Shown here in pieces: positions 30,570-52,580 of a DNA stretch of 64,000 nucleotides. The translations under genes and the position numbers were made by a program. Numbering within the stretch: the first letter of the stretch is position 1; each line of letters begins with the position of its first letter. The notes under the pieces are model-generated. The model was not told the origin of the DNA. It saw nothing but the letters and a program-made list of their open reading frames with translations, and searched no databases. The stretch comes from Gammaproteobacteria bacterium (GTDB taxonomy: Bacteria; Pseudomonadota; Gammaproteobacteria; Eutrophobiales; Eutrophobiaceae). The DNA lies in NCBI GenBank assembly GCA_003250975.1, contig QKIY01000028.1, positions 195,248 to 259,247 of the forward strand, written 5' to 3'.

Positions 30570-31904
30570 GTGGCTGTTACTCCGTGGAAATACTGTCTTG
30601 AATGCCTGGAAGGAGAGCTGACACCACAACAATTCAACACCTGGATACGACCACTTCAAGCCATTGAGGACGATGCAGCCATTCACCTGCTTGCCCCGAA
30701 CCGCTTTGTCATGGACTGGGTTAATGACCAATACCTGTCGATGATAAAAGATTTCCTGAACCAACAGGATAATTCATCCAATCTCTCGGTGCTCGTTGAG
30801 GTCGGCAGTTCATCAAGACCGGTAAAAACTGACGATACATCTACTATAAGGCCCCAAGCGCCGGTTGTCAGGAACAGTAAGCATTCAAACAACCTGAACA
30901 AGGATTTCACCTTTGAAACGTTTGTCGAGGGCAAATCGAACCAGCTTGCCCGCGCAGCCTCCCTGCAGACATCACAGAATCCGGGTAATTCTTACAACCC
31001 CTTGTTTATCTATGGTGGCGTCGGTCTGGGCAAGACTCATCTTATGCACGCTATTGGTCACTCTATACTCCAGCATACCCCGGGAGCCAATATTGCCTAT
31101 CTGAATTCCGAGCGCTTCGTTGCAGACATGGTCAAGGCCCTGCAACACAACGCTATAAACGATTTCAAGCGCCATTACCGAAGCGTGGACGCCCTGTTAA
31201 TTGACGACATACAGTTTTTCGCCGGTAAGGAACGTTCACAGGAAGAATTTTTTCATACCTTCAACTATCTACTCGAAGGCCAGCATCAAATCATATTGAC
31301 CTGTGACCGATACCCAAAGGAAGTTAATGGTCTTGAGGAACGTCTCAAGTCCCGTTTCGGGTGGGGGCTTACCGTTGCCATCGAACCACCGGAACTTGAG
31401 ACTCGGGTGGCCATACTCCATATGAAGGCCGCCAGAAATAATTACACACTACCCGACGAGGTCGCCTTCTTTATTGCCAAGCGCTTCCGTTCAAATGTCC
31501 GGGATCTTGAAGGCGCACTGAATCGCGTTTTTGCACACTCTAACCTGACCGGCCAGGCCATTACGCTGGACTTTGTTCAGATGGCACTGAAGGACCTGCT
31601 GTTAATTCAGGACAAGCAAATCACCATTGAAAATATCAAGAAGATCGTGGCGGAATACTACAAGATCCGTGTCGCGGACCTGTTATCAAAGCGCCGTAAC
31701 CGGTCTGTTGCCCGCCCTAGGCAACTAGCCATGGCCCTGTCCAAAGAACTGACAGGTCACAGCCTACCGGAGATCGGGGATGCCTTTGGTGGCAGGGATC
31801 ATACAACCGTGCTACACGCGTGCAGGAAGATTACAGATCTGCGTAAAACTGACCAGAAGATTGAGGAAGACTATAATAATCTGGGTAAAATCCTTACTAC
31901 ATGA
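30570..31904 (+). CDS. dnaA: chromosomal replication initiator DnaA
   Basis: GTG start with AAGAGG SD; [31 protein letters not shown] domain I; AAA+ Walker [11 protein letters not shown]; C-terminal DNA-binding domain. Confidence 0.95.
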
Positions 31905-32051
31905 TGTGGTTATTGTGTTAATAAATCACTTTTTAACACAACAACTACTGTTCTGGGGTAAACTGTCCACAGGCAGATCAGATATTAAATACAGACCATA
32001 ATGACACACCCAATATAATCTAACTTTTTGTTTTTATGATGTTTATTTGAC

Positions 32052-32060
32052 TTATCCACA
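32052..32060 (+). promoter_or_regulatory. DnaA box TTATCCACA (perfect) in AT-rich dnaA-dnaN intergenic
   Basis: Exact consensus within a 200-bp stretch of roughly 75% AT. Confidence 0.6.
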
Positions 32061-32104
32061 ATCTTGTTAGGTATAAATTATAATAAAAACAATTAGGTAT
32101 ATAT

Positions 32105-33205
32105 ATGAAATTTAATATTAATAGAGAATTGCTCTTGCCCGCCTTGCAGACCGTCAATACCGTAGTAGAAAGGCGCCACACTCTGCCAATACTATCTAAC
32201 CTATTGATTTCATTGAATAAAAATACTATTGATATTGCTGGTACGGATATGGAAGTGGAAGTCATCACCACTCTTACAGCCAAAACCGGTGAGGAATGCC
32301 AGTTTACTATCCCGGGTCGAAAATTGCTGGACATCTGCCGTGCCCTCCCGGAATCGGCGGAACTGGATTTCTCTGTTAACAAGGACCATATCACCCTGAA
32401 AACAGGTAGGAGTCGCTTTACACTGGCAACATTGCCCGCTAAGGACTTTCCTATCACCGATATATCCGAGCCGATTGTTGAGTTTGAGATCGAACAAGGA
32501 GTATTCAAATCGCTCATCGAGGACACGATGTTTGCTATGGCGCAACAGGATGTCCGCTACTATCTGAATGGACTCCTCCTAGAGGCGAGCAATCAACGGC
32601 TCAGGGCCGTTGCGACTGATGGCCACCGCCTGGCGATGAAAGAGATTTCCCACAAATTGCCGATTGATGAGCAGATTCAGGTCATTGTCCCGAGGAAAGG
32701 TGTAATTGAACTTGCACGTTTGTTGGAAGACAGCGATGAAAAGGCCAGGTTTCAGATCACCCGAAACCACGTCCGGATTAATCTGAACAGCATACAATTT
32801 ACAAGCAAACTGATCGACGGCAAGTTCCCTGATTATGAACGTGTGTTACCAAAAGAAACCAGCACACCCCTGATCTCTGATAAGAATGCGCTTAAGCAGA
32901 GCCTCACACGCGCCTCAATCCTGTCGAATGAAAAATATAAAGGGGTGCGCATTGTCCTCAAGAAGAACAGCCTGCAGGCACTGGCCCATAACCCGGAACA
33001 GGAAGAGGCAGAGGAAGAACTCGAGGTGGATTACCAAGGCCAGGATATGGAGATTGGCTTCAATGTGACTTACCTGCTGGATGCGATCAATGCAATAAAG
33101 TCCGCCAGGGTGATCATGGCAACCAAGGACCCGGACAGCAGTTGCCTTATCTTGCCGGAAGAGGAAACAGGCTGTAAGTATGTCGTTATGCCAATGCGGC
33201 TGTAA
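32105..33205 (+). CDS. dnaN: DNA polymerase III beta sliding clamp
   Basis: 366 aa; MKFNINRELLLPALQTVNTVVERR N-terminus, C-terminal MPMRL. Confidence 0.95.
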   Translation: MKFNINRELLLPALQTVNTVVERRHTLPILSNLLISLNKNTIDIAGTDMEVEVITTLTAKTGEECQFTIPGRKLLDICRALPESAELDFSVNKDHITLKTGRSRFTLATLPAKDFPITDISEPIVEFEIEQGVFKSLIEDTMFAMAQQDVRYYLNGLLLEASNQRLRAVATDGHRLAMKEISHKLPIDEQIQVIVPRKGVIELARLLEDSDEKARFQITRNHVRINLNSIQFTSKLIDGKFPDYERVLPKETSTPLISDKNALKQSLTRASILSNEKYKGVRIVLKKNSLQALAHNPEQEEAEEELEVDYQGQDMEIGFNVTYLLDAINAIKSARVIMATKDPDSSCLILPEEETGCKYVVMPMRL

Positions 33206-33216
33206 ACCCAAACGGT

Positions 33217-34296
33217 ATGCGGTTCACGCAGCTTTCGATCCAGTCTGTAAGAAATCTTGCAGATATAAGCCTGAAGTGCCACCCAGGCTGTAATATCATC
33301 TATGGCAAAAACGCGGCGGGTAAGACAGCTATACTTGAGGCCATTCATATCCTCGCCCGCATCAGTTCCTTCAGGACCCCCAAGATCACCGAGGTCATTC
33401 AACGTTCGCAGGATAAGTTAACGGTATCCGCCGAACTCCAGGACCGAATGGACCGTGCCATCAAGACAGGACTGGAAAAGGGCAGGCTGAAAACACGGAT
33501 ACGCTTTAATGGCCATAAGGTCTTGCGACGTTCGGAACAGGCCAGAAATATTCCCCTCCTGACCATTACGCCAGAAAGCCACAGGCTTCTATTCGGTACC
33601 CCCAGGGAGAGACGCCATTGGTTGGACTGGTCATTGTTCCACGTGGAACAAGGCTATATCAGACATTGGCAGGACTATCACCATGCCCTGCGGCAAAGAA
33701 ATATATTGTTGAGAAAATCCGTACGAGGGGAACAACTAGACCCTTGGGAAAAGGCACTATCAGTCTCAGCAGCGCCGATTATCGTCGCACGCAATAGGTA
33801 CCTTCAGCGACTGGAGTTGACTCTGGGCCAATATACCGGTGAAGAGGTTATGCCGGTGGAACTCAAGTATACCGGGACAGAAGAGACTGAAGAGGCCTAT
33901 GCGAGAAAACTACGGGACAACCGCCAATCCGATAGCAAGGCGGGCCATACTCAGCTTGGGCCACACCGGGACGATATCCATTTTCAGCAGGGCAAACACA
34001 ACATAGGCAGTATCTTTTCCAGGGGGCAGGCCAAACAGTTTATTGTTTCATTGACACTGGCACAGGCCGATGTCTACAGGCGGGCCTGCAAGGTGTCACC
34101 CATCATGTTGGTCGATGATCTTACAGCTGAGTTAGACTTGGATGCTCTGCAATTTATCCTGGCGCGTTTGCAGGGACAGGACATGCAAGTCTTTATCACC
34201 ACAACCAGCCTGGAGCCACTGAGTTTGACGAAGAAAGGGCGGGATATGGGGGTGTTCCACGTGGAACACGGTAAGGTTGTAAAAGTGGTAGAATGA
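33217..34296 (+). CDS. recF: DNA replication/repair protein RecF
   Basis: Walker A GKNAAGKT, SMC-like signature, Walker B LVDD. Confidence 0.9.
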   Translation: MRFTQLSIQSVRNLADISLKCHPGCNIIYGKNAAGKTAILEAIHILARISSFRTPKITEVIQRSQDKLTVSAELQDRMDRAIKTGLEKGRLKTRIRFNGHKVLRRSEQARNIPLLTITPESHRLLFGTPRERRHWLDWSLFHVEQGYIRHWQDYHHALRQRNILLRKSVRGEQLDPWEKALSVSAAPIIVARNRYLQRLELTLGQYTGEEVMPVELKYTGTEETEEAYARKLRDNRQSDSKAGHTQLGPHRDDIHFQQGKHNIGSIFSRGQAKQFIVSLTLAQADVYRRACKVSPIMLVDDLTAELDLDALQFILARLQGQDMQVFITTTSLEPLSLTKKGRDMGVFHVEHGKVVKVVE

Positions 34297-34320
34297 CGGA
34301 TTCTTTAGAATGTTGAGTAG

Positions 34321-36735
<2,415 letters not shown>

Positions 36736-36918
36736 TTCACAGCGTACTGGCCAAGAACCAGGCCAGGAATTTAAAGACGGCAGGAGGCGGAAAGATAGGT
36801 AAAGATATCTCATCAGCTACGAAGTTACCCACCTAAACTATTCATTCTACACCCTTGGGACGCGATGGCAAGCGTAAACCCCTGATCACAAGCCCGGGTA
36901 TTTATCTCTCTAAACCGA

Positions 36919-36932
36919 TTGATATAGATCAA
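36919..36932. promoter_or_regulatory. FNR/CRP-family box 1: TTGATATAGATCAA (perfect TTGAT-N4-ATCAA)
   Basis: Exact match to the FNR consensus half-sites with 4-bp spacer. It lies within a larger palindrome ACCGATTGAT-ATAG-ATCAATCGGT (36914..36937). Confidence 0.6.
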
Positions 36933-36942
36933 TCGGTATCAA

Positions 36943-36956
36943 TTGATCTATATCAA
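36943..36956. promoter_or_regulatory. FNR/CRP-family box 2: TTGATCTATATCAA (perfect TTGAT-N4-ATCAA; inverted copy of box 1)
   Basis: Centre 24 bp downstream of box 1 centre; ~34 bp upstream of a TATATT -10 hexamer (36981..36986). Confidence 0.6.
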
Positions 36957-36980
36957 TGGAATTTTATTTTTTCGTTTGCG

Positions 36981-36986
36981 TATATT
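36981..36986 (+). promoter_or_regulatory. candidate -10 hexamer TATATT for the cytochrome cluster promoter
   Basis: Places the FNR box 2 centre near -43 and box 1 near -67 relative to a TSS around 36993, ~100 nt upstream of the first cytochrome gene. Confidence 0.35.
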
Positions 36987-37092: not shown

Positions 37093-37707
37093 ATGCATTG
37101 GCTAAGAAAAATCTGGAATGCGCTACTTCGCCCAAGTTCCCGTTATTCTCTAGGGGCGGTTCTCCTGGTAGGCGCAGTTGGGGGTGTTCTGTTCTGGGGC
37201 GGATTTAACTGGGCGATGGAAATGACGAATACAGAGGCATTTTGTATCTCCTGCCATGAAATGGAAAACACCGTATATAAGGAATACAAAGAAAAGATCC
37301 ATTACTCCAACAATTCAGGTGTCCGGGCAGTCTGCGCTGACTGCCACGTGCCACATGATTGGGTTCACAAAGTGATTCGCAAGATCAAGGCCAGCAACGA
37401 GCTCTATCACAAGATTATCGGGACAATTGATACCGTTGAGAAATTCGAGGCCAAGCGATTGGAGCTTGCAAAGCATGTCTGGGAGGAAATGAAGGCTAAT
37501 GATTCCAAGGAATGCCGTAACTGTCACAGCATGACCGCTATGGATTTATCCAAGCAAAAACCCCGTGCCCGCGGTCAGCACGAAAGTGCCGCGGAAGAAA
37601 ATCAAACCTGCATCGATTGCCACAAGGGAATTGCCCATAAAGACATTCATAAGGAATTGGAGAAAGAGAAAGAGACTGAACCAACAGAAGAGGATTTTAT
37701 GTTGTGA
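37093..37707 (+). CDS. NapC/NirT/CymA-family membrane-anchored tetrahaem c-type cytochrome (quinol dehydrogenase)
   Basis: N-terminal TM helix (YSLGAVLLVGAVGGVLFWGGF) and four CxxCH motifs (CISCH, CADCH, CRNCH, CIDCH); 204 aa, typical size for this family. Confidence 0.85.
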   Translation: MHWLRKIWNALLRPSSRYSLGAVLLVGAVGGVLFWGGFNWAMEMTNTEAFCISCHEMENTVYKEYKEKIHYSNNSGVRAVCADCHVPHDWVHKVIRKIKASNELYHKIIGTIDTVEKFEAKRLELAKHVWEEMKANDSKECRNCHSMTAMDLSKQKPRARGQHESAAEENQTCIDCHKGIAHKDIHKELEKEKETEPTEEDFML

Positions 37708-37738: not shown

Positions 37739-38713
37739 ATGAACATGAAACGCCGGGAAACACTAAGAAAAAGAAAGCTGTCTCAAGCGACTATTATTAT
37801 CGCTTCTTATTTAATTTCGACTGCGAGCGTACAGGCAATCGATTGGGGCAGCGTTCAAGGGAAAGATGTAACACTTTTTTATCCCGGACAGGCATCCTGG
37901 GAATGGGTGCTGACGAAGTCTGATCATAGTGGGGCTGATAAATTCAAGCAGGGAAAGAATTGCAAGGAATGTCACGAACGTGAAGAAAGCGATATCGGCA
38001 CAAAAATCGTAACGGGCAAGAAACTAGAGCCTGATCCTATTCCCGGCAAAAGCGGCTCGATCAAGGTAAACGTCAAAACCGCCCATGACAGTGAAAAGTT
38101 TTATGTCAGATTTGAGTGGTCTGAGACTCCCCAGGGCGATCAACCAATCATGGATAAAGATTTCGATTCCAAAATAACCGTGATGTTCGATGACGGCAAG
38201 GTACTGGCAGCCAAACGGGCCGGTTGTTGGGGCACATGCCATGACGACGCCGTGAATATGGCAAGCGCACCAACGGGAAAGGAGATCACCAAATACCTTG
38301 CCCAATCACGCACAAAACTCGGACGCAGCGGCGGCGGTGAGAATTATAAATCACCGTCCGAGCTTGATCAGTTACTGAATGAAGGAATATTCATGGAATT
38401 CTGGCAGGCAAAGCTTAATCAAGGTGCAGAACCAGTCGCCGTCGACGGATATATCCTGGATAAACGCCATAAGAATGACAATCCCTTGGTTGATGTCCAG
38501 GCGGAATTTAATGGCGGCAAATGGACTGTTACCATGAGCCGGAAACTGACAGTGTCAGAACCACATAGAAAAAATATCGCGGCCGGGCAAATCTATCCGG
38601 TAGGTTTTGCCCTGCATGATAATCATACCGAACACCGTTATCACTATATTTCACTCGAACATACATTCGCCCTGGACCAGGGTGAGGCGGATTTTATCGC
38701 TGTTAAGAAATAA
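37739..38713 (+). CDS. periplasmic c-type cytochrome, atypical (one CxxCH plus one CxxxCH), candidate electron shuttle
   Basis: Signal peptide ending VQA; CKECH near residue 75 and CWGTCH near residue 165. Otherwise a beta-rich soluble protein of 324 aa. Confidence 0.55.
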   Translation: MNMKRRETLRKRKLSQATIIIASYLISTASVQAIDWGSVQGKDVTLFYPGQASWEWVLTKSDHSGADKFKQGKNCKECHEREESDIGTKIVTGKKLEPDPIPGKSGSIKVNVKTAHDSEKFYVRFEWSETPQGDQPIMDKDFDSKITVMFDDGKVLAAKRAGCWGTCHDDAVNMASAPTGKEITKYLAQSRTKLGRSGGGENYKSPSELDQLLNEGIFMEFWQAKLNQGAEPVAVDGYILDKRHKNDNPLVDVQAEFNGGKWTVTMSRKLTVSEPHRKNIAAGQIYPVGFALHDNHTEHRYHYISLEHTFALDQGEADFIAVKK

Positions 38714-38718
38714 ACATT

Positions 38719-39714
38719 ATGGCTATGGGGGGCATAACAATGATTAATGCCAGTAATAGAAAAATGAAGCTATCAGGAGCCCTGCTTCTGTTAGGTATAT
38801 TCGGCAGCTTTCCGGTCTTCGCTGCCGATGGGGGCACCGATGAGGCGGGAAGAGAATACGCATTGAAAGGTGCAAAGACCTGCCTTAAATGCCACGACGA
38901 ATATCCGGTAAAGAATATTTTTCAGACCCCTCATGTGCAAAAGGCCGACAAGAGAACGCCGTTTGCAGCCCATGAATGTGAGTCCTGTCATGGTGCAAGC
39001 CCGGACCACCTGATAGAGCCGCCCAAAAAGGACCAGGGAGAAAAACATAAACCACCCCATCTCGTATTCGGGCTGAAATCGAAAAACTACAAGGTCTCAA
39101 GCGTTGATGATCAGAACAAAGTCTGTCTTGGGTGCCATGAATCGGGGATAAGGATGCACTGGCGCGGGAGCCAGCACCAGTCTGGTGACGTTCCTTGTGC
39201 GGCCTGTCATGCCATACACCAGCCCAAGGATCCGGTTCTGGTCAAGACCGACCAGGCAGAAGTCTGTTTTGCCTGCCATACCGACAAGCGCGCGCAGTTG
39301 CGCCGCCGTTCCAGACACCCAATCAGGGAAGGCAAGGTGGTATGTGCAGATTGTCACAATCCGCATGGCTCCGCCGGACGCACCTTGCTGGTCAAGAACA
39401 CCGTCAATGAAACCTGTTACCAGTGTCACGCTGAAAAGCGTGGCCCGTTCCTGTGGGAACACCAGCCGGTGAGGGAAGACTGCACAAATTGCCATAATCC
39501 GCACGGCAGCACACAGCAGAGGATGCTGGTACAAAGAACACCTTTCCTCTGCAATAACTGTCATTCGGAACGATTTCATCCGAGCACGCTCAGGGACGGG
39601 AGCGGACTGCCGCCTGTTGGTGCGGACAATCGGTTGCTGGGCAAGGGTTGCTTGAATTGCCATTCAAAGATTCACGGTTCCAATCATCCGTCTGGACCCA
39701 GGTTTACCAGATAA
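38719..39714 (+). CDS. decahaem c-type cytochrome, MtrA/MtoA/PioA/DmsE family
   Basis: Signal peptide (MKLSGALLLLGIFGSFPVFA) and ten CxxCH motifs in ~300 mature residues (CLKCH, CESCH, CLGCH, CAACH, CFACH, CADCH, CYQCH, CTNCH, CNNCH, CLNCH). Size and haem density match periplasmic decahaem conduits. The true start is probably an internal Met (38740 or 38764). Confidence 0.85.
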   Translation: MAMGGITMINASNRKMKLSGALLLLGIFGSFPVFAADGGTDEAGREYALKGAKTCLKCHDEYPVKNIFQTPHVQKADKRTPFAAHECESCHGASPDHLIEPPKKDQGEKHKPPHLVFGLKSKNYKVSSVDDQNKVCLGCHESGIRMHWRGSQHQSGDVPCAACHAIHQPKDPVLVKTDQAEVCFACHTDKRAQLRRRSRHPIREGKVVCADCHNPHGSAGRTLLVKNTVNETCYQCHAEKRGPFLWEHQPVREDCTNCHNPHGSTQQRMLVQRTPFLCNNCHSERFHPSTLRDGSGLPPVGADNRLLGKGCLNCHSKIHGSNHPSGPRFTR

Positions 39715-39777: not shown

Positions 39778-42045
39778 ATGAACAAGTTAAAATACAATTT
39801 ATATGTATTGATAGCAGTCGCCTTCCTTTCCTCAAACAACGTCATTGCACAGGAGGAAGGGGGGTTTATGCTTGAGGAAGTTACAGAGGCACCAGCACCT
39901 GTGTATTTCAGTTTTGTTGAAGGTGGCGGCATCTATTCCAGTGCGGATTCCTTCAAATTCGGGGAATACAACGGCCTGGAAGAAGAGGGCTTTTACGCCA
40001 ATTTCAATTTCGGGGTGAGCCTATTGACCGCCTACGATGATAACAGTACGCAGTATGCGGATTTTTCAGGTACCAATGTAGGACTGGATAACCGCTCGTT
40101 GTACGGAGAATACGGTCAACAGGGAAGATACAGTGTCTATGCTGAATATGATCAAATACCCCACAACCGCCTCGATGATGCCCTCACACCCTTTGTCGGC
40201 GCCGGTACGAACAACCAGACCCTGCCGGCCAGCTTTTCTCCTACTGCCACCGTGACCACTCAATTGCCACTGCAATCAACTTTAAACCAGGTGGATGTCG
40301 AAACAGACCGCTATACGGCTGGCGCAGGTTTTACCTGGATCCCCCTGGAAAACTGGCAGTTAAGAGGAAACTACCACCATCAAATCAAGGACGGCACCGA
40401 GACCCTGGCCTCCATATTCGCCCAGGGTGGTGGCGGGAACCTTCGTTCATCGATACTCGTCGTGCCGGTTGATTACCAGTTCGATGAAGCTGATGTAGGC
40501 GTTGCCTATACAACCAAGCAATACCAGGTAGACCTCAGTTATCATTTTTCATACTTCAATAACTCAGAAGGAGCAGTGAACTGGCGCAACCCCTTCAATG
40601 AAGGCGGTGGTGGAACCGGCGCCCGATTCAATGATCCGGGCTTAATCGCAACGGCACCTGACAATACTGCCCACCAGGTGACATTGTCAGGCGGTTATAA
40701 CTTCGGGGCGACTTCCCGCCTATCGGGAAGCTTCTCCTGGGGACAGATGCTGCAGAGTGACAGTTTCTATAACTACAGCGTCAATCCGAGATTCCCCATC
40801 ACCACTCTGCTGCCGCGAGGCGATCTTGACGGGGAGATTCAAACTCTCTTTGCCAACCTGAATTTCACCACGCGGCCAATCAGGAATCTGAGCTTAGGGG
40901 CCCACTATACCTATGATGACAGGGACAACCAGTCCCCTCGGGATGTTTACTCGAGGATCCGGAACGATGCCTCCGCTCAGGCGGATCCTACCGATCCCAC
41001 CGATGAGAATAACAGGGTCCCGCGCCCCTACAGCCTGGAGCGGCATAAGGTTGAACTGGATGCTGACTATCGCCTGACCAGGATATTCAAGCTTGGGGCC
41101 GGCTATGAATTTGAACAAATAGACCGGGATTTATCGGAAGTCGATTCCACCCGGGAGCATACCGGTAAGGTCAAACTTTCCTTGACACCTTACGGCTCAA
41201 CAAGTGGCTGGATTAAATATGCCTTTTCAAGGCGCACCGGGGATGACTATGTCACCAACCTTCCATTCGTTGAAGGACAGACAGCAGCCCATATTGCGAC
41301 CCTGACATTCGATGAGTTGTTCGAGAATGATCCAACACTGCTTAAATGGTATATGAATGATCGGGATAAACATGATGTGAAAGGGAACATCAATTTTACC
41401 CCTGCTAACACGGTGTCATTAGGGTTGACCGGTGGCGTATCCCTTAGTGATTACAATGATTCAACAACCCTCGGACCATCGCTCGGATTACGCAAGGATA
41501 CCAGGGGCTATGGCACCTTCGATTTAGGACTGTATCCAACGGAAAATATTGATACCTATGCCTATGTGACATATGAGCGCATTCAGCGTGAACAGAATGG
41601 CTACGAACGTAACACCGTAGTTACCCCGCTATCCGTGCGTGACCCGGGCAGGTTCTGGGATTTAGATACCATTGACGATGTTTACTCACTCGGTACCGGT
41701 GTTAATATTCGTGACTTGATGGGCGGCAGGGTGGATATCAACGCAGATTACACATTTTCCTACGCTGACACCGAAATCGACCCTGTAGGCGGCACCACTC
41801 TACAACCCGTTTTCGATCTCACTCACCTGACGACGAGGACACACAGCTTTAACATCACGGGCGATTACAGGCTGAGAGATAATATGAAAGTAAGGCTTGC
41901 TTATCTCTTTGAATACTTCAAAACACGTGATTTTTCCCTTAGCCAGGTGTACCCGGATTCGTTAAATAACGTTCTTTTACTCGGTAACACCGATCCGAAT
42001 TACACAGCCCATGTAGGCTGGCTCTCATTCATTTATGAATTCTAG
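39778..42045 (+). CDS. outer-membrane beta-barrel, MtrB/MtoB/PioB-like (decahaem-associated porin)
   Basis: Signal peptide (MNKLKYNLYVLIAVAFLSSNNVIAQ). 755 aa rich in Y/G/N/D/T with alternating amphipathic beta-strand pattern. C-terminal ...SFIYEF with terminal Phe. Immediately follows the decahaem gene. Confidence 0.65.
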   Translation: MNKLKYNLYVLIAVAFLSSNNVIAQEEGGFMLEEVTEAPAPVYFSFVEGGGIYSSADSFKFGEYNGLEEEGFYANFNFGVSLLTAYDDNSTQYADFSGTNVGLDNRSLYGEYGQQGRYSVYAEYDQIPHNRLDDALTPFVGAGTNNQTLPASFSPTATVTTQLPLQSTLNQVDVETDRYTAGAGFTWIPLENWQLRGNYHHQIKDGTETLASIFAQGGGGNLRSSILVVPVDYQFDEADVGVAYTTKQYQVDLSYHFSYFNNSEGAVNWRNPFNEGGGGTGARFNDPGLIATAPDNTAHQVTLSGGYNFGATSRLSGSFSWGQMLQSDSFYNYSVNPRFPITTLLPRGDLDGEIQTLFANLNFTTRPIRNLSLGAHYTYDDRDNQSPRDVYSRIRNDASAQADPTDPTDENNRVPRPYSLERHKVELDADYRLTRIFKLGAGYEFEQIDRDLSEVDSTREHTGKVKLSLTPYGSTSGWIKYAFSRRTGDDYVTNLPFVEGQTAAHIATLTFDELFENDPTLLKWYMNDRDKHDVKGNINFTPANTVSLGLTGGVSLSDYNDSTTLGPSLGLRKDTRGYGTFDLGLYPTENIDTYAYVTYERIQREQNGYERNTVVTPLSVRDPGRFWDLDTIDDVYSLGTGVNIRDLMGGRVDINADYTFSYADTEIDPVGGTTLQPVFDLTHLTTRTHSFNITGDYRLRDNMKVRLAYLFEYFKTRDFSLSQVYPDSLNNVLLLGNTDPNYTAHVGWLSFIYEF

Positions 42046-42931: not shown

Positions 42932-43903
42932 ATGCAAAGCCCCGATACCTCAGGAGCAAATACTATACGCCATGACTGGTCTGAGGATGAAGTCACGGCC
43001 CTGTTTCAAACGCCATTTAATGACCTTGTCTTTCGCGCCCAGTCGCTCTATCGCCAGTTCTTTGACCCCAATGCGATCCAGCTCAGCACCCTGCTCAATA
43101 TCAAGACCGGCGGGTGCCCGGAGGATTGTGCTTATTGCCCCCAAAGCGCCCGCTATGCCACGGGTCTGAACGCCGAGCCACTGATGGACATTGCAGAGGT
43201 GAAATCGGCCGCTGTTCAGGCCAGGGAAAAGGGGGCCAGCCGGTTTTGCATGGGTGCCGCCTGGCGTAGCCCGAAGGACCGTGACCTAGACCAGGTGATC
43301 GAGATGATCCGCGTCGTCAAGGATCAGGGCCTGGAGGCTTGTGCAACGCTGGGGATGCTGACCAGGGAGCAGGCCGACAAGCTGAAATCCGCGGGCCTGG
43401 ATTTCTACAATCATAATCTGGATACTTCCGAGGCCTTTTACGAGACGATTATTTCAACCCGCACCTACCAGGATCGGCTGGACACCCTGGAGGCTGTCCG
43501 TGAGGCGGGCATGAAAGTCTGTTGTGGCGGTATCGTGGGCATGGGAGAAGGCCTGGCAGACCGGGTACAGATGCTGATCACACTGGCCAACCTGCCCAGT
43601 CACCCCGAGAGCGTCCCGATCAATCTGTTGGTCAGGGTGGAGGGCACGCCATTGGAAGATCAGGCCGATCTGGATCCCTTTGACATGGTACGGATGATCG
43701 CTGTTGCCCGTATCATGATGCCGGCATCCTATGTGCGCCTGTCCGCCGGGCGTAATGAAATGACGGATGAGTTGCAGGCCCTGTGTTTTCTCGCGGGCGC
43801 CAACTCGGTCTTCTATGGCGAGAAGTTGCTGACGACCGGCAATCCCGAATTTGCCCGGGACCAGTCATTATTCCGCCGTTTGGGATTAAAGGCCACGCAT
43901 TAA
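42932..43903 (+). CDS. bioB: biotin synthase
   Basis: Radical-SAM [11 protein letters not shown]; 323 aa. Confidence 0.93.
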
Positions 43904-43924
43904 ACATTTCATCCGGGCTCTATA

Positions 43925-45124
43925 GTGACCGATCTTCCCCCGCGCTTTCGGCAGGCCCTTGAGCAAGACAGACAGGAACGGGCCCGGCAGGGGCTGACGC
44001 GCCAGCGCCGTGCCAGAGAATTTGCCCCGCCCCCTTTTGCAATACTTGATGGCCGTTCGGTCATTAATTTCTGCAGCAATGATTACCTAGGGCTCTCGGG
44101 CCACCCGGCCTTGATTAAGGCCACGCGTGAAGGCCTGGATGAATACGGCCTGGGCAGCGGTGCCTCGCAACTGGTCTGTGGTTATTCAGCCGTGCACAAA
44201 GAACTCGAGGAAAGGTTGGCCGAACATACCGGCAGGTCACGCGCCGTGCTGTTTTCAAATGGCTATATGGCAAACCTCGCCATCATCGACAGCCTGCTGG
44301 GCAAGGGTGATTGTGTGTTTGGCGATCGCCTGAACCATGCCTCGCTGATCGATGCCGCCCGGTTATCGCGAGCAGTGTATAAGCGTTATCCGCATGGTGA
44401 TGTGAATGCACTAACCAGGCTGTTACAACACAACGACACCGGAAAGGCGCTGGTGTCAACCGATGCGGTTTTTAGTATGGACGGTGATATTGCGCCGCTG
44501 AAAGAGATGGTCCACCTGTGTACCGAGCATGGCGCCCTGCTGTCGGTCGATGATGCCCACGGTTTTGGTGTGCTGGGCCGGAAAGGGGCCGGCACGCTGG
44601 AGCAGCTTGGCCTGGGCCCGGAACAGGTGCCGCTCTTGATGGCGACCTTTGGCAAGGCCCTGGGCGGCTTTGGCGCCTTTGTCGCTGGCGATGAACTGAT
44701 CATTGACAACCTGGTTCAGCGTGCCCGTACGCTGATCTATACCACGGCCCCACCGCCCGCCTTGGCGAAGGCCGCTTTGCGGGCGCTGACTCTGCTAACC
44801 GAGGAGGCCTGGCGGCGGGAAAAATTGTCTGAACTAACTGAGCATTTTATTCAGGGTGCACGTGAGCACGGCCTACCTTTGGCCGGTTCAACAACCCCGA
44901 TACAGCCCGTCATCCTGGGTACGGCCGCCAAGGCGGTAATGGTCAGCAGGCAATTACTCGAGCGGGGATTCTGGGTCACGGCCATCCGGCCGCCAACGGT
45001 GCCCCAAGGCACGAGCCGTCTGCGGATCACGCTGAGCGCAGCGCACGAGATTGCCCATATCGATGCACTGCTGGATGCCCTGGTAGAAGTCCTGGGGCAG
45101 GAGGAACGGGCATGCGGTCAATAA
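43925..45124 (+). CDS. bioF: 8-amino-7-oxononanoate synthase
   Basis: Class II aminotransferase fold, PLP-lysine region SVDDAHGFGVLG...TFGKALG. Confidence 0.9.
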   Translation: MTDLPPRFRQALEQDRQERARQGLTRQRRAREFAPPPFAILDGRSVINFCSNDYLGLSGHPALIKATREGLDEYGLGSGASQLVCGYSAVHKELEERLAEHTGRSRAVLFSNGYMANLAIIDSLLGKGDCVFGDRLNHASLIDAARLSRAVYKRYPHGDVNALTRLLQHNDTGKALVSTDAVFSMDGDIAPLKEMVHLCTEHGALLSVDDAHGFGVLGRKGAGTLEQLGLGPEQVPLLMATFGKALGGFGAFVAGDELIIDNLVQRARTLIYTTAPPPALAKAALRALTLLTEEAWRREKLSELTEHFIQGAREHGLPLAGSTTPIQPVILGTAAKAVMVSRQLLERGFWVTAIRPPTVPQGTSRLRITLSAAHEIAHIDALLDALVEVLGQEERACGQ

Positions 45125-45858
45125 GGCTAAAGGTGCTGCCCGGCTGGGGACTGCCAGCTGCCGTGATGTTGGAATATGTCTCTGAACTGAGTGCTCACTT
45201 TCACACAGAGATAGTGAATTTACCGGGTTATGGAACGGATTACCCAGACAGGCTCCGGGATATGGGGGGGCTGGTCGATGCCTTAAGCCCGCAGATCAAG
45301 CAACCCTGCGTGTTGCTAGGCTGGTCATTGGGTGGCATGGCGGCCCTGGGTCTCGCATCAGAACTGGGAGACAAGGCGCTTGGGGTATTCTTGCTTGCCA
45401 GCACACCTTGTTTTGTCAACAGGCCCGGTTGGTCACACGGCGTATTGCAGGACGACATCGGGCGTATGTTGGAAATAGTTGAAGACCAGCCGGGCCATGT
45501 CTTGCAAGGTTTCGCTGGGCTGGTGGCAACCGGGGATGCTGCCGCCCAGACAACACTGCGCAGCTTGAAAGACGCGGTCGCTGAGCCCCCGGCAAGGCCC
45601 GCCACCCTGGCGGACGGCCTTCAAATATTGATGATATCGGATCTGCGTAACGAACTCGCGGGCCTGAAATGTCCTGCCGCGCTGTTGCTGGGCGGGGAGG
45701 ACCGGCTTGTCCATCGCGGGACAGCGGAGGCCAGTCACGCCCTCTTTCCCGGACTGCGTGCAGAATTGATTGAAGATGCCGGCCACGCCCCGTTTCTCTC
45801 CTGTCCAAGGGAGACGGTAAAAAAGACGCTGCAACTGCTGAAAGGAATGCAGATATGA
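45112..45858 (+). CDS. bioH: pimeloyl-ACP methyl ester esterase
   Basis: alpha/beta hydrolase with GWSLGG nucleophile elbow; overlaps bioF and bioC. Confidence 0.8.
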   Translation: MRSIRLKVLPGWGLPAAVMLEYVSELSAHFHTEIVNLPGYGTDYPDRLRDMGGLVDALSPQIKQPCVLLGWSLGGMAALGLASELGDKALGVFLLASTPCFVNRPGWSHGVLQDDIGRMLEIVEDQPGHVLQGFAGLVATGDAAAQTTLRSLKDAVAEPPARPATLADGLQILMISDLRNELAGLKCPAALLLGGEDRLVHRGTAEASHALFPGLRAELIEDAGHAPFLSCPRETVKKTLQLLKGMQI

Positions 45859-46727
45859 GCGGACGGGAAAAGATATGGGTGGCAGAGCGGTTTAACCGTG
45901 CTGCAAGGGATTATGACGAGCACGCGGTGTTACAGAAGGCCGTTGCCGAAAGGCTGTTGGCTCGTCTGGATTACCTGCGCATTTCTCCCTCGTGGGTGCT
46001 GGACCTGGGTTCCGGTACAGGCGCCTCGGCTCGGTCGCTTGCGGGCCGCTATCGACGGGCACGGGTCCTGCACCTGGACCTCTCGGTCGCAATGCTGGCC
46101 ACTGCTCGTGCCCAGGGGCCGCGGTTCTTTTCCCGGCATGCGTATGTTATGGCTGACATGGAGCAGCTTCCCCTCCCCGCCAACAGCATGGACATGGTCT
46201 ACTCCTCGCTCACACTGCAATGGAGCCATTCACCCGATCGTGTATTTCAGGAAGTACAGCGGGTCTTAAAACCGGATGGCCTTTTCCTCTTTTCCAGCCT
46301 CGGTCCTGACACCCTGAAAGAGCTGCGGGCGAGCTGGCAGGCCGTAGACGACAAGCAACATGTAAACATCTTTCCGGATATGCATGAAGTGGGTGACGGT
46401 CTGCTGCGCACTGGGATGGAAGATGTTGTTATGGATATGGAGATCATGACGATGCGTTACCCCGATTGCTACGGGCTCATGCGCGACCTGAAGCTCGTCG
46501 GCGCCAACAGCCTAATCGCGGGACGCAATAAGGGGCTTACTGGCAAGCAGAAGATGAAGGCCATGATGCAGGCTTACGAAAACTACCGCCGCGAAGGGCT
46601 GCTGCCCGCTACCTACGAGGTGGTCTATGGACATGGGCGTAAGTCCGTCAGGCCGGAGCAACATCTGCAGGACAATGTGGCCTATATCAGCGTCGATAGC
46701 CTGCGTCGGGGGATACGGAAAAGATGA
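45855..46727 (+). CDS. bioC: malonyl-ACP O-methyltransferase
   Basis: SAM-MTase motif I VLDLGSGTG; position in bio operon. Confidence 0.85.
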   Translation: MSGREKIWVAERFNRAARDYDEHAVLQKAVAERLLARLDYLRISPSWVLDLGSGTGASARSLAGRYRRARVLHLDLSVAMLATARAQGPRFFSRHAYVMADMEQLPLPANSMDMVYSSLTLQWSHSPDRVFQEVQRVLKPDGLFLFSSLGPDTLKELRASWQAVDDKQHVNIFPDMHEVGDGLLRTGMEDVVMDMEIMTMRYPDCYGLMRDLKLVGANSLIAGRNKGLTGKQKMKAMMQAYENYRREGLLPATYEVVYGHGRKSVRPEQHLQDNVAYISVDSLRRGIRKR

Positions 46728-47407
46728 AACCCGTTTCTGGTTACTTTATTACCGCGACAGACACGGGCGTAGGCAAGACCTGGTGCACCCTGGCTCTGAT
46801 GCAAATGTTCCAGTCGCAGGGACTCAGCGTGGTCGGCATGAAGCCGGTAGCCAGCGGTTGCCGCGAGAAGGGTGGGCACCTCCTGAACGAAGATGCCGAA
46901 CTTATCCAACAACAGGCCACAGGTATCCCTGACTATGAGCGCGTGAATCCCTATGCGTTCGCCCCGCCTATTGCCCCGCACATCGCGGCAGAAAAAGCCA
47001 AGGTGAAGATCTGTCTGCCAGATCTGCAAATAAGTTACAACGAACTGGCCGAAGGAAATGACAGGATCATCGTTGAAGGCGTTGGCGGCTGGCGTGTTCC
47101 TTTGGGACAAGACCAAAGCCTGGCCGACCTGGTGCGGCTGCTTGGCCTACCGGTGATCCTCGTTGTCGGCCTACGGCTCGGCTGCATCAGCCACGCCATA
47201 ATGACGGCGGAGGTGATCCGGGCTGATGGCCTACCGCTGGCTGGCTGGGTTGCCAACCACTGCCAGCGGGATTACGCGGAAGAAGACGCCACCTTATCCA
47301 CGCTCAGGAGCCAGATCACAGCGCCCCTGCTGGGAGTGCTACCATGGTTGCCCGCGCTGGATGTGGCCAGGCTGTCTGCCGGGTTGGATCCTACAGCCTT
47401 CACCTGA
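46724..47407 (+). CDS. bioD: dethiobiotin synthetase
   Basis: P-loop ITATDTGVGKT; 227 aa. Confidence 0.9.
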   Translation: MKPVSGYFITATDTGVGKTWCTLALMQMFQSQGLSVVGMKPVASGCREKGGHLLNEDAELIQQQATGIPDYERVNPYAFAPPIAPHIAAEKAKVKICLPDLQISYNELAEGNDRIIVEGVGGWRVPLGQDQSLADLVRLLGLPVILVVGLRLGCISHAIMTAEVIRADGLPLAGWVANHCQRDYAEEDATLSTLRSQITAPLLGVLPWLPALDVARLSAGLDPTAFT

Positions 47408-48105: not shown

Positions 48106-49248
48106 ATGTTTTTCAATAAGCTGAGAAATTGCCTATTAGGGGCTGGAACGATGTTCTCGTTGTTATGGGCGGGGGCAGTAAATGCAGAGTGGGGGCTCAA
48201 TATGACACCGGGTGTAACCCCGGTCAGCCAGGATGTCTATGACCTGCACATGCTGATTCTATACGTGGTGACGGTCATTGGCATCATCGTCTTCAGTATC
48301 ATGTTCTGGTCAATTTTCCACCACCGCAAGTCAAAGGGCGCAGTTGCCGCCAAGTTCCACCACAGCACATTCGCCGAGATCGCCTGGACCATCGTCCCGG
48401 TGTTGATCCTAGTCGGCATGGCCGTTCCGGCAACCAAGACACTAATTAAAATGGAACAGACAGGTGATGCCGATATCACCGTCAAGATCACGGGCTATCA
48501 GTGGAAATGGAAATACGACTATCTTAACGAAGACCTCAGTTTCTTCAGCGTTCTGGCCCAGGACAGTAACGAGGCGCGCCAGCTGGGTTCAAACATAGAT
48601 CCGGCAAGCGTGGATCATTACCTGCTTAATGTGGATCAGCCAATCGTCCTCCCGGTCAACAAGAAAGTCCGCTTGCTGACCACGGCCAATGACGTTATTC
48701 ACGCCTGGTGGGTGCCGGCCCTGGGCTGGAAGCGTGATGCCATTCCCGGCTTTATTAATGATAACTGGGCCATCATCGAAAAAGAGGGGACTTATCGCGG
48801 CCAATGTGCGGAGCTGTGTGGCAAGGATCACGGCTTTATGCCCATCGTGGTCAAGGCTGTTCCGGAAGACGAATATGAAGCTTGGATAGAGGATATGAAA
48901 CTGGCACAAGCCGAGGCCGCGGCGAGCGGTGAGCGCGAGTGGAGCAAGGATGAACTGATGGCCAAGGGCAAGGACCTGTATGCCAAGAACTGTGCGGCCT
49001 GCCACATGGCCGAGGGGCAGGGGGTCCCGGGGATGTTCCCTTCATTGGCGGGCAGCCCGATTGTAGCGACCGCAGAGGGTTTGCCTGATCACATAGACAG
49101 GCTCCTCAATGGTAAGAACCTCATGCCCGCCTTCGGTGAACAGTTGTCTGATGCGGATATTGCCGCCGTCATCACCTTTGAGCGTAATGCCTGGGGTAAC
49201 GATACAGGCGACGTGGTTCAGCCGAAAGATATCAAGGCTGCACGTTAA
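48106..49248 (+). CDS. coxB: cytochrome c oxidase subunit II with fused C-terminal cytochrome c domain
   Basis: CuA ligands (H...CAELCGKDHGFM) and C-terminal CAACH haem c motif; 380 aa. Confidence 0.93.
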   Translation: MFFNKLRNCLLGAGTMFSLLWAGAVNAEWGLNMTPGVTPVSQDVYDLHMLILYVVTVIGIIVFSIMFWSIFHHRKSKGAVAAKFHHSTFAEIAWTIVPVLILVGMAVPATKTLIKMEQTGDADITVKITGYQWKWKYDYLNEDLSFFSVLAQDSNEARQLGSNIDPASVDHYLLNVDQPIVLPVNKKVRLLTTANDVIHAWWVPALGWKRDAIPGFINDNWAIIEKEGTYRGQCAELCGKDHGFMPIVVKAVPEDEYEAWIEDMKLAQAEAAASGEREWSKDELMAKGKDLYAKNCAACHMAEGQGVPGMFPSLAGSPIVATAEGLPDHIDRLLNGKNLMPAFGEQLSDADIAAVITFERNAWGNDTGDVVQPKDIKAAR

Positions 49249-49296
49249 GCAGGAATTCTTGTTCAGTTATTAAAAATTTATAAAGAGGATAGACAA

Positions 49297-50898: not shown

Positions 50899-50940
50899 GC
50901 GTGAGGTAATATATTGGACCAGCAGCAAAAGGATCCCAGA

Positions 50941-51045
50941 ATGTCATCCGAGATGGCGGCTAAAAACCGGCGCCTGGCGATTATCCTTGCGCTGATCGCG
51001 GTCGGGTTTTATGTGGGTTTTATCTTGATGAATCTGAAGCAATGA
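50941..51045 (+). CDS. unannotated 34-aa single-TM peptide between coxA and cox11 (possible small oxidase subunit/assembly peptide)
   Basis: Manual translation MSSEMAAKNRRLAIILALIAVGFYVGFILMNLKQ. Stop overlaps cox11 ATG in an ATGA coupling. It is below the ORF-track cutoff. Confidence 0.45.
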   Translation: MSSEMAAKNRRLAIILALIAVGFYVGFILMNLKQ

Positions 51046-51617: not shown

Positions 51618-51652
51618 TTAAATACAAATAATATTGATAACGGGGAGCTATT

Positions 51653-52534: not shown

Positions 52535-52580
52535 GCCGGGTTTTAACTGCCGGGCCATTGGATGGCGAGGCAATTAACGG

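Follow-up and report, generated by a model that had tools for sequence, protein, structure and literature searches.

Outside Shewanella and Sideroxydans, less is understood of how electrons cross the periplasm than of any other step in MtrAB/MtoAB/PioAB-type pathways. A four-gene locus within the window, the whole 64,000-nucleotide stretch of DNA analyzed here, raises the question of which protein might carry electrons between an inner-membrane tetrahaem cytochrome and the decahaem cytochrome of an outer-membrane conduit. In other systems this place in the pathway, from the inner-membrane quinol/quinone cytochrome to the decahaem protein, is taken by MtoD, PioC, FccA/STC, or PdsA, often encoded in the same cluster. 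The folds of these carriers (class I monohaem, HiPIP, small tetrahaem, and dihaem PdsA) are unrelated to that of the protein encoded here, and the likeness is one of functional analogy only. The reading preferred here, with a probability of roughly 60%, is that the protein serves as a periplasmic two-haem relay between a NirT-type quinol dehydrogenase and the decahaem conduit, at low oxygen and with outward electron flow favored.

The candidate gene (37739..38713, forward strand) is the second of four genes on the same strand. The first encodes a NirT-like membrane-anchored tetrahaem quinol dehydrogenase of 204 residues with four CxxCH motifs (37093..37707, forward strand; PF03264, E 1.4e-77). 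Its score against TIGR02161 (napC_nirT) is 298 bits, just below the cut-off of 310. The earlier note on this DNA had called this neighbor CymA-like; NirT-like describes it better, given that it is 60–61% identical to the NirT part of NirTB fusions encoded beside nirS. The candidate gene starts 31 nt downstream of the NirT-like gene and ends 5 nt before the gene for a periplasmic decahaem cytochrome of the MtrA/MtoA/DmsE family (38719..39714, forward strand; 331 residues, ten CxxCH motifs; TIGR03508, 299 vs 192 bits), in which Pfam finds five Paired_CXXCH_1 stretches. The fourth gene encodes an outer-membrane porin of the MtrB/MtoB/PioB family (39778..42045, forward strand; 755 residues; PF11854, E 3e-147; TIGR03509, 467 vs 240 bits). 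Adjoining genes for a DmsE/MtrA-family decahaem protein and an MtrB/PioB porin, the mark of an MtrAB/MtoAB/PioAB locus, are present, and no MtrC/OmcA-type gene is found at the window locus.

Upstream of these genes lie two boxes of the FNR/CRP family, TTGATATAGATCAA (36919..36932, forward strand), a perfect TTGAT-N4-ATCAA, and TTGATCTATATCAA (36943..36956, forward strand), also a perfect match to the consensus. They are the only two perfect FNR boxes in the 64 kb (0.12 expected), and both stand in the promoter region of this operon. Together they form a palindrome with a 16-bp stem (36918–36957), apart from which a generic promoter and terminator scan gave background levels. A −10-like TATATT (36981–36986) implies a start site, and the center of the second box would lie ~43 nt before it. 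Of 66 related loci, 28 have boxes with at most one mismatch ahead of their nirT-like gene, a density ~24 times that of the background. Since the four genes would form one operon behind these boxes, which are consensus matches, expression of the pathway is probably induced at low oxygen.

The 324-residue reading frame starts with ATG, and a Logan contig from SRR7216773 encodes an identical protein of 322 residues that begins at Met3. Residues 1–33 (37739..37837, forward strand) read as a Sec signal peptide with cleavage between VQA and IDW. Among the 120 close homologues listed, every presequence ends in a signal peptidase I site of the AxA type, followed at once by a conserved [IV]DW, and a lipobox is seen in none. 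The first haem-c motif, CKECH (C75, C78, and H79; residues 75–79, 37961..37975, forward strand), is located in an N-terminal helical extension. The second, CWGTCH (C163, W164, C167, and H168; residues 163–168, 38225..38242, forward strand), is a CX3CH motif within an insertion of the beta-sandwich. No cysteine occurs outside the two motifs, which together contain four. Each of the 120 closest homologues listed has a single CxxCH and a single CWxxCH, and C75, C78, H79, C163, C167, and H168 are kept at 98–100% in a further 120, more distant homologues, so neither motif is a product of chance. The earlier note had described a secreted, beta-rich protein with these two motifs, which holds for the reading frame, the signal sequence, and the predicted strands; the loss of the second motif in homologues, named there as evidence against the proposal, is not seen.

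The protein probably carries two haems, one at CKECH and one at CWGTCH. This is suggested by the conservation of both motifs including their histidines, by the report of NirB as a dihaem protein, by the count of two haems given for the orthologue from Telmatospirillum, and by precedents for CX3CH haem sites, namely the putative haem-binding motifs of ImcH and Rhodoferax CymA. The homologue alignment also holds four more invariant potential ligands, H63, M174, H293, and H302. M149 was dropped as an obligatory haem ligand because it is only 88–95% conserved. That these four residues exceed the ligand need of two c-type haems could be taken to mean that haem is attached at the CxxCH site only, with the CWGTCH cysteines forming a disulfide or metal site, or with the EB_dh pocket holding a non-covalent haem b. 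CX3CH is a non-canonical motif, and the characterized EB_dh members hold haem b non-covalently. Against this, CWxxCH keeps its histidine as strictly as its cysteines across the 240 homologues, whereas a disulfide needs no histidine; the literature on NirB and the putative CX3CH motifs of other cytochromes also speak for a second covalent haem. A single c-type haem is thus quite improbable.

The fold to which these motifs are added is that of the EB_dh family. PF09459 matches residues 34–303 at 113.9 bits (gathering score 33.3), covers model positions 2–234 of 236, and is present in all listed homologues. An AF2 model, built without cofactors, consists mostly of beta strands (mean pLDDT 86, pTM 0.84). 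Its top Foldseek matches in the PDB are EbdC (2ivf_C, E 3.6e-9) and NxrC (7b04_C, E 3e-8), with CBM9 and DOMON modules next in rank; OmcA is a weak match (E 7e-3, TM 0.23). Searched by sequence on its own, the protein drew only noise-level hits from the PDB (NxrC, E 0.007, and ‘Cake’ propellers, which are designed proteins), and recovery of NxrC and EbdC by sequence needed the family profile. The protein is built on an EB_dh beta-sandwich of the DOMON superfamily, which bears out the suggestion of a haem-binding beta-sandwich and of an EB_dh profile search as its check. Matches to cytochrome profiles remain below their gathering scores (PF13442, E 0.13; PF14522, E 0.0075), and the profile search of the 324-residue protein gave no match to a HiPIP domain. 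A class I cytochrome or HiPIP shuttle is ruled out on these grounds; with two motifs only, the protein is not a multihaem cytochrome of the MtrA type either, as had been proposed.

EbdC (2IVF chain C) and NxrC (7B04 chain C) share their fold and Pfam family with the window protein at ~12% sequence identity, together with a conserved arginine (R300 in the window protein) just before the position of the distal ligand. They differ in how haem is held. EbdC and NxrC bind one non-covalent haem b through Met and Lys and dock on an Fe-S subunit, whereas the window protein has two c-type motifs, a haem-bearing N-terminal extension, no molybdoenzyme partner, and, relative to EbdC, an insertion of roughly 50 residues. 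In the profile register, I304 takes the Lys-ligand position, four residues after the conserved Arg, and the invariant H302 comes two residues after that Arg. The CWGTCH motif appears to fall at the NxrC loop that carries the canonical axial Met. The common fold and family could indicate that the protein, like EbdC, NxrC, SerC, and DdhC, is a gamma (haem) subunit in a molybdoenzyme of the type II DMSO-reductase family. Its score against TIGR03477, the profile of these subunits, reaches 38.5 bits where the cut-off is 169.85, alpha and beta subunit genes are absent from the window operon and related loci, and c-type motifs stand in place of the Met/Lys haem-b site in the sequence register, which makes a gamma subunit exceedingly improbable.

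The closest link to a named protein is to NirB, known since 1991 from nirSTBM denitrification clusters and reported as dihaem. In a tblastn search, residues 34–324 are 36–40% identical to the C-terminal NirB domain of NirT-NirB fusions (E down to 3e-66), and all five matches sit in genes named ‘NapC/NirT family’; for the fusions encoded beside nirS the identity is 37–40%. In both regions inspected, from Azospirillum and Ruegeria, the fused NirTB genes adjoin genes for cytochrome cd1 (nirS) and likewise encode one CxxCH and one CWxxCH. The EB_dh domain with this motif pair is common to NirB/NirTB and the window protein, as are the invariant residues H63, M174, K185, Y186, K204, Y286, H293, R300, and H302. 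The gene order is alike as well; NirB directly follows, or is fused to, a NirT tetrahaem cytochrome, and the window gene also follows a nirT-like gene. By these likenesses the protein is assigned to the known, poorly studied NirB or ‘cytochrome c-552’ family, and it is not a new kind of protein. The assignment rests on the names used in the sources (‘cytochrome c-552/C552’), the fused NirTB of the literature, and the nirS context rather than on the P. stutzeri sequence; Stutzerimonas NirB is not among the best 120 matches with the Azospirillum NirB domain or Marinobacter P0201 as seeds.

Within this family the window protein stands apart. A neighbor-joining tree places a conduit-associated clade away from the clade of NirS-associated and fused proteins. 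Among the subfamily-specific changes of the window protein are K73, where the other clade has Asp, and an inserted W222. The window gene lies beside genes of the mtrA/mtrB type, not beside nirS. The window protein's clade, sister to NirB, appears to have moved from nitrite reductase to outer-membrane electron conduits. In the fused relatives, linkers of 49–183 residues join the dihaem domain to the inner-membrane anchor, and such single-chain fusion in the sister clade argues for a physical interaction of NirT and the dihaem protein.

Gene order was counted in the 80 closest species genomes, of 483 species genomes that encode a relative. Of the 80 best species loci, 68 have a NirT-like gene as the immediate upstream neighbor and 60 an MtrA-like gene as the immediate downstream one, while the complete colinear set of four genes is found in 47. 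An adjacent nirT is missing from eight of the 80 loci, and the gene has a PQQ alcohol dehydrogenase neighbor in two (L057 and L060), so the set of partners is not fixed within the clade. In six of the 80, a Cyc2-like fused cytochrome-porin takes the position of MtrAB. As defined by Keffer 2021, Cyc2 has at least 365 residues, one N-terminal CxxCH, AxPxFAR[Q/K][T/Y] upstream of it, and PxL four residues after the haem motif. The neighbors in question have 400–423 residues and a single CxxCH (for example, ‘ATPAFARATGAACNKCHSEMFPRL’), and show all of these features except [Q/K], which is replaced by A, S, or L; one further deviates with FSR (L032) and one with AAFAR (L042). Pfam and NCBIfam give no profile match to the porin part save a weak Porin_4, and the Cyc2-like label of these monohaem proteins is by the published motif only. 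Carriers of the cluster include methanotrophs, Lysobacterales, Acetobacteraceae, Telmatospirillum, and sulfur-oxidizing lithotrophs (Thiohalomonas and Thioalkalivibrio). Two of the carriers are cultured, Rehaibacterium terrae DSM 25897 (L029) and Marinobacterium aestuariivivens NBRC 111756 (L018); in the second, the tblastn match to mtrB comes as two pieces that overlap.

These counts bear on whether the protein might be an ordinary NirB that serves a cytochrome cd1 nitrite reductase encoded elsewhere, with the mtrAB adjacency incidental. Homology to a NirB domain found beside nirS would suit such a role, as would promoter boxes of the FNR/DNR type, which are expected for denitrification control by the FNR/CRP family. 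Yet synteny with MtrA/MtrB or Cyc2 is kept across Gamma- and Alphaproteobacteria, the protein and the NirS-associated members fall in separate clades, and tblastn with the Azospirillum NirS query finds no NirS homologue in the 80 conduit-clade loci. The window ORFs examined around the operon likewise include no NirS-like product. An ordinary NirB is accordingly very improbable.

One relative has a published context. Gagen et al. 2019 (PMC6933298) describe an operon of ‘cytochrome c-552 (2 hemes)’, MtrA, and MtrB in a Telmatospirillum MAG, the carrier being the inferred Fe(III) reducer of a goethite-reducing enrichment. The cytochrome (SA7853BIN3_04711, locus L075) is an orthologue of the window protein with 47% identity and the motifs CKECH and CWAACH. 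MtrA- and MtrB-like genes follow it directly, as in the window, with no adjacent nirT there. The authors did not recognize the EB_dh fold or the relationship to NirB; they proposed an MtrC-like role, BUSCA having predicted an extracellular location (PMC6933298). A 2026 Ferrovaceae paper mentions ‘another c-type cytochrome’, whose identity is not given, in a similar four-gene region. Literature on EB_dh/PF09459 with Mto/Mtr and on NirB/NirT with MtoA/PioA yielded no description of the present protein in Mto clusters. Of the ‘novel periplasmic electron carrier’ that the earlier note had suggested, the role of carrier agrees with the position of the gene and the conserved synteny, while ‘novel’ falls to the NirB/c-552 family and the Telmatospirillum operon.

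The window gene and the genes of the outer-surface decahaem proteins MtrC and OmcA hold the same position relative to mtrA-mtrB. MtrC and OmcA are lipoproteins with ten or more haem motifs, whereas the window protein has two, no lipobox, and no match to PF22113; membership of the MtrC family is ruled out by the signal peptidase I site, the number of haem motifs, and the missing PF22113 match. An analogous function is a separate matter. The dihaem protein could be secreted to the cell surface and act on MtrAB as a terminal extracellular reductase, a minimal analogue of MtrC. The order c-552, mtrA, mtrB mirrors mtrC-mtrA-mtrB, the orthologue is extracellular by BUSCA, the operon has no other candidate surface cytochrome, and the DOMON/CBM9 superfamily contains many extracellular modules, with OmcA among the weak structural matches. 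Such a role is nonetheless doubtful. The listed homologues share the absence of a lipobox, and in the sister clade a covalent fusion holds the protein to an inner-membrane NirT on its periplasmic side. The more constant neighbor is nirT rather than mtrA, the pair also occurs with Cyc2, which is thought to need no surface partner, and two haems would span a very short distance. The place of the gene in the mtrC position of mtrCAB and the extracellular prediction for the orthologue (PMC6933298) remain observations that run counter to a periplasmic relay.

In the preferred reading, the periplasmic relay, the gene product would be a Sec-exported, non-lipoprotein c-type cytochrome with two covalent haems. 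A periplasmic location is suggested by the signal peptidase I site, the absence of a lipobox, and the fused relatives, which are tethered to an anchor in the inner membrane. The tetrahaem cytochrome of the NirT type, whose gene lies directly upstream, would exchange electrons with the quinol pool, and the dihaem protein would dock on it and carry electrons across the periplasm. The next partner would be the MtrA-type decahaem protein threaded through the MtrB-type porin. The dihaem protein would thereby assume the role that FccA/STC, PdsA, MtoD, or PioC plays in other systems. Flow from quinol to an extracellular acceptor is favored, with inward flow possible. NirT is required for nitrite reduction in Stutzerimonas perfectomarina ZoBell, which implies that it feeds electrons outward to a periplasmic reductase. 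This role of NirT and the carriage of the operon by the inferred Fe(III) reducer of the goethite enrichment both point outward.

The same relay could also run inward, as a true Mto/Pio-type uptake of electrons from extracellular Fe(II) or a cathode. Electrons would then pass from the MtoA-like decahaem protein to the dihaem protein and on to the NirT-like protein, which would reduce quinone, a model with a precedent in ImoA/CymA of Sideroxydans ES-1, as proposed there. The locus lacks an MtrC/OmcA-type gene, as do MtoAB and PioAB, and in six related loci the NirT and dihaem pair is followed by a Cyc2-like protein, of a family characterized as Fe(II) oxidase. On these two points inward flow fits at least as well as outward flow. 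Sulfur-oxidizing lithotrophs are among the carriers, an aa3 oxidase is encoded in the window, and FNR control also suits a microaerophilic oxidizer. In the other direction, NirT supplies a periplasmic reductase where it has been characterized, most carriers (the methanotrophs, Lysobacterales, Acetobacteraceae, and Telmatospirillum) are not known as iron oxidizers, and the only published physiological context is goethite reduction. Quinone reduction from a Cyc2-level potential (+208 mV) is also energetically uphill. Inward flow is a possibility to be reckoned with, although rather unlikely, and the label of a Mto/Pio-type cluster, with the Fe(II) oxidation that it implies, is not established.

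The window alone is a modest result, one more typical member of this type of cluster; the wider set gives it weight. A large set of bacteria would use a denitrification-derived module, NirT plus a NirB-like beta-sandwich dihaem protein, instead of MtoD, PioC, or FccA/STC, and the module occurs with Cyc2-like porin-cytochromes as well. The dihaem protein is a testable candidate for the missing periplasmic carrier. It also offers a marker for the prediction of extracellular electron transfer, as screens that count only CxxCH motifs or require at least three haems will miss it. The function of NirB is obscure even in denitrifiers, and a first structure of a NirB-type protein is worth solving.

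A broader proposal is put forward tentatively, with its parts held jointly at somewhat less than even odds. The NirT and EB_dh-dihaem pair may be a general FNR-controlled adaptor between inner membrane and periplasm that connects the quinone pool to whichever outer-membrane conduit a host has, a decahaem-porin of the MtrAB/MtoAB type or a monohaem-porin of the Cyc2 type. Its hosts would be hundreds of proteobacterial species that are not regarded as electroactive, among them aerobic methanotrophs, Lysobacterales, Acetobacteraceae, Magnetospirillaceae, and sulfur oxidizers. The CX3CH haem would occupy the ancestral haem-b pocket, with His168 in place of the Met ligand and His302 in place of the Lys ligand. 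If this is true, the CX3CH site would document the evolution of a c-type site out of a b-type one.

The gene at 37739–38713 of the window (+ strand) starts with ATG and encodes a 324-aa protein. The earlier note's reading of one CxxCH and one CxxxCH is confirmed, with CKECH at aa 75–79 (nt 37961–37975, +) and CWGTCH at aa 163–168 (nt 38225–38242, +), which account for all four cysteines. The N-terminus is a Sec-type signal that ends at VQA, directly before IDW. A NapC/NirT tetrahaem gene (37093–37707, +; 204 aa; PF03264, E 1e-77) lies 31 nt 5′, and a DmsE/MtrA-family decahaem gene (38719–39714, +; 331 aa; TIGR03508, 299 bits against a cut-off of 192) lies 5 nt 3′. An MtrB/PioB porin gene (39778–42045, +; 755 aa; TIGR03509, 467 bits against a cut-off of 240) follows 63 nt past the decahaem gene. 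The gene after it is on the opposite strand, so the operon is a four-gene unit.

The profile search against EB_dh-like families that the earlier note suggested gives an EB_dh (PF09459) match over aa 34–303 (113.9 bits; gathering score 33.3). In the Pfam scan of the protein, all cytochrome families stayed below threshold. In an AF2 model with 60 homologues as input (pLDDT 86, pTM 0.84), the fold is a beta-sandwich; CKECH sits in a helical extension at the N-terminus and CWGTCH in a partly helical insertion, roughly aa 155–218. The top Foldseek matches in the PDB are the haem-b gamma subunits of molybdoenzymes EbdC (2ivf_C, E 3.6e-9) and NxrC (7b04_C, E 3e-8), followed by CBM9 and DOMON modules. 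Neither the sequence search nor the fold search of the PDB yielded a structure for a c-type EB_dh protein. Assignment as a molybdoenzyme gamma subunit was rejected, with TIGR03477 scoring 38.5 bits against a cut-off of 169.85 and alpha/beta subunit genes absent.

Exactly one CxxCH and one CW[GAS]xCH are present in each of the 120 closest homologues (49–100% identity). Among a further 120 that are more distant, conservation is 100% for C163, C167, and H168 and 98% for C75, C78, and H79. The earlier note named absence of the second motif from homologues as grounds for refutation; CW..CH is kept throughout all 240. The His that invariably follows the second Cys of CWxxCH favours haem attachment over a disulfide. 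Putative CX3CH haem-binding motifs have precedents in ImcH, Rhodoferax CymA, and one MtrA branch. The CKECH/CWGTCH observation is real and non-random. Residues H63, M174, K185, Y186, K204, Y286, H293, R300, and H302 are also universal among the homologues compared.

The placement of the haems can be considered by comparison with NxrC, whose haem b is ligated by Met155 and Lys305. In the sequence register, NxrC I143 aligns with V155 of the EB_dh dihaem protein, so that NxrC Met155 falls at C167/H168. An Arg is common to NxrC (R301), EbdC (R197), and the EB_dh dihaem protein (R300); the Lys ligand of NxrC and EbdC is at +4 from this Arg, whereas the invariant His302 is at +2. These two correspondences lead us to suspect that His168 and His302 ligate the CX3CH haem within the ancestral haem-b pocket. 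The CKECH site would be an N-terminal addition whose haem has H63 or M174 as its distal ligand.

The relationship to denitrification cytochromes comes from fused genes. Five tblastn matches on plasmids (36–40% identity over aa 34–324) all lie within 541–595-aa genes annotated ‘NapC/NirT family cytochrome c’, and those of Azospirillum brasilense Sp7 p4 and Ruegeria AD91A are directly downstream of cytochrome cd1 (nirS) genes. The translated fusions run from NirT (4 CxxCH) through a long Ala/Pro/Glu linker to an EB_dh domain with the motif pairs CIGCH/CWSTCH or CTTCH/CWASCH. They are the fused ‘NirTB’ proteins of the denitrification literature, in which NirT is described as a tetrahaem and NirB as a dihaem protein, with reference to Jüngst et al. 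1991 for nirSTBM. The neighbour called cymA-like in the earlier note does belong to the tetrahaem NapC/NirT family, but is better termed NirT-like, being 60–61% identical to the NirT domain of the fusions; this identity makes the window pair a NirT/NirB module. The EB_dh dihaem protein is best assigned as a NirB-type cytochrome, with a link to P. stutzeri NirB itself that is indirect, via fused NirTB. The suggested novelty of the carrier does not hold: the family is known, if under-studied, the protein is typical of it, and this type of cluster has been noted once before. Many family members are named ‘cytochrome c-552/C552’ or ‘ethylbenzene dehydrogenase-related protein’ by their sources.

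An exhaustive profile search returns 780 clusters (50% identity) at E ≤ 1e-3, and the family architectures include NirT-EB_dh, EB_dh-EB_dh, NirT-EB_dh-EB_dh, and 8-haem-EB_dh. Unusual examples are a tandem of two EB_dh dihaem domains (P0241, 694 aa), a NirT-EB_dh-EB_dh protein (P0242, 924 aa), and a multihaem-EB_dh fusion (P0332, 524 aa) whose MtrA/NirT-like N-terminal part has 8 CxxCH and is joined to one EB_dh dihaem domain.

Relatives are encoded in 483 genomes (one genome per GTDB species scanned). The window's four proteins were mapped onto loci of the best 80 of these (43–80% identity), which span Gammaproteobacteria (Methyloprofundus, Methylomarinum, Lysobacterales, Rehaibacterium terrae, Marinobacterium aestuariivivens, Thiohalomonas denitrificans, Thioalkalivibrio) and Alphaproteobacteria (Rhodospirillales, Magnetospirillaceae, Telmatospirillum, Acetobacteraceae, Caulobacteraceae, Rhizomicrobium). 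A NirT-like gene is immediately 5′ in 68/80 loci and an MtrA-like gene immediately 3′ in 60/80, with the complete colinear four-gene set in 47/80. MtrAB is elsewhere in the locus in 7/80, and a contig end is too near downstream to judge in 5/80, one of them shared with the seven.

Six loci carry, directly 3′ of the EB_dh dihaem gene and in place of MtrAB, a gene for a 400–423-aa protein with one N-terminal CxxCH (L046:995-2248, L061:4999-6270, L063:4172-5425, L069:8988-10223, L032:7170-8405, and L042:8252-9454). These proteins bear the published Cyc2 cytochrome-porin signature, e.g. ATPAFARATGAACNKCHSEMFPRL, which consists of AxPxFAR..., CxxCH, and PxL four residues on (PMC8406198). The [Q/K] position is altered in all six, and they are therefore called Cyc2-like only. 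The replacement points to a probable second kind of outer-membrane partner for the NirT and EB_dh-dihaem pair. In a neighbour-joining tree, NirS-associated and fused proteins form one clade and MtrAB-, Cyc2-like-, or PQQ-dehydrogenase-associated proteins another, within which the Cyc2-associated proteins are a single subclade.

Several loci depart from this layout. In two Rhodospirillales MAGs (L057 and L060; Telmatospirillum, Rhodospirillaceae) the EB_dh dihaem gene lacks an adjacent nirT or mtrAB. In L057 it directly follows a PQQ methanol/ethanol-family dehydrogenase (6109-7863; TIGR03075, 777 bits), beside the ABC substrate-binding protein of that enzyme (9064-10209); a large 596-aa ORF (L060:6143-7933) has the equivalent position in L060. 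The cytochrome may accept electrons from that dehydrogenase. A second, divergent EB_dh-like paralogue (26–29% identity) lies within or just past the cluster in a Thioalkalivibrio MAG (L039:8227-8943) and Thiohalomonas denitrificans (L055:12118-12852). Cluster parts are duplicated as a second NirT and MtrA-like pair (L058:2748-4344), an upstream second MtrAB pair (L073:3215-6458), and tandem MtrB-like porin genes (L076:12453-14810). In cultured Marinobacterium aestuariivivens NBRC 111756, the MtrB-like tblastn match is in two overlapping pieces (L018:10305-12175) and the MtrA match ends at residue 286, which may reflect a frameshift, pseudogene, or assembly error.

The EB_dh dihaem protein would act as a periplasmic redox partner of NirT, giving electrons to, or taking them from, the outer-membrane conduit. 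This reading is drawn from the sister-clade fusions, the constant nirT neighbour, and the swapping of MtrAB for a Cyc2-like protein as outer-membrane partner. In 120/120 close homologues the conserved [IV]DW comes immediately after an AxA signal peptidase I site, with no lipobox found in their presequences, and in fused relatives linkers of 49–183 aa (median 81) tie the EB_dh domain to an inner-membrane anchor. Gagen et al. (2019; PMC6933298) described a Telmatospirillum MAG operon, ‘cytochrome c-552 (2 hemes)-MtrA-MtrB’, and proposed the dihaem protein as an extracellular MtrC analogue; the gene arrangement and two-haem count have thus been published once. Their SA7853BIN3_04711 is the orthologue in locus L075 (47% identity, CKECH and CWAACH). 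The searchable literature yielded no EB_dh fold assignment or NirB/NirT relationship for the conduit-linked protein, no wide synteny or Cyc2-like alternative partner of the pair, and no FNR boxes of the operon or periplasmic reading of the protein. As a lead, the protein is moderately interesting: it points to a NirTB-type periplasmic link, widespread among bacteria, that would serve outer-membrane electron conduits.

The 357-nt region 5′ of the nirT-like gene contains two perfect TTGAT-N4-ATCAA boxes of FNR type, at 36919–36932 (TTGATATAGATCAA) and 36943–36956 (TTGATCTATATCAA). These are the only perfect sites in the 64 kb, against 0.12 expected. The inverted boxes, 24 nt apart, form a 40-nt perfect palindrome (36918–36957) with a 16-bp stem. 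Relative to a -10-like TATATT at 36981–36986, the second box would be near the class II position. Among 66 related loci, 28 have a box with no more than one mismatch within 400 nt 5′ of the nirT-like gene; box density there is 1.15 per kb, about 24-fold the 0.049 per kb of the rest of these loci.

We lean towards outward electron flow, given the FNR-type control, the mostly heterotrophic or methanotrophic carriers, the feeding of a periplasmic reductase by NirT in its characterised setting, and goethite reduction as the sole published physiological context (PMC6933298). Inward flow through the same relay is a possible alternative, consistent with the absence of an MtrC-like gene from the locus, the association with Cyc2-like proteins, whose family is characterised as Fe(II) oxidase, and the lithotrophy of some carriers.

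Genes resembling dnaA-dnaN-recF-gyrB (30570–36735), read from translations, lie directly 5′ of the four-gene operon, so a likely replication origin adjoins it. An apparent biotin operon, bioB, F, H, C, D (42932–47407), also read from translations, comes after it; among these neighbour assignments, from dnaA to bio, bioB alone is corroborated, by Radical_SAM and BATS domains on a matching Logan contig. About 6 kb downstream of the operon is an aa3-type cytochrome c oxidase cluster (48106–56209) encoding a CoxB fused to a cytochrome c domain, together with CoxA, CoxC, CtaA, and CtaB, and the organism therefore respires oxygen too.
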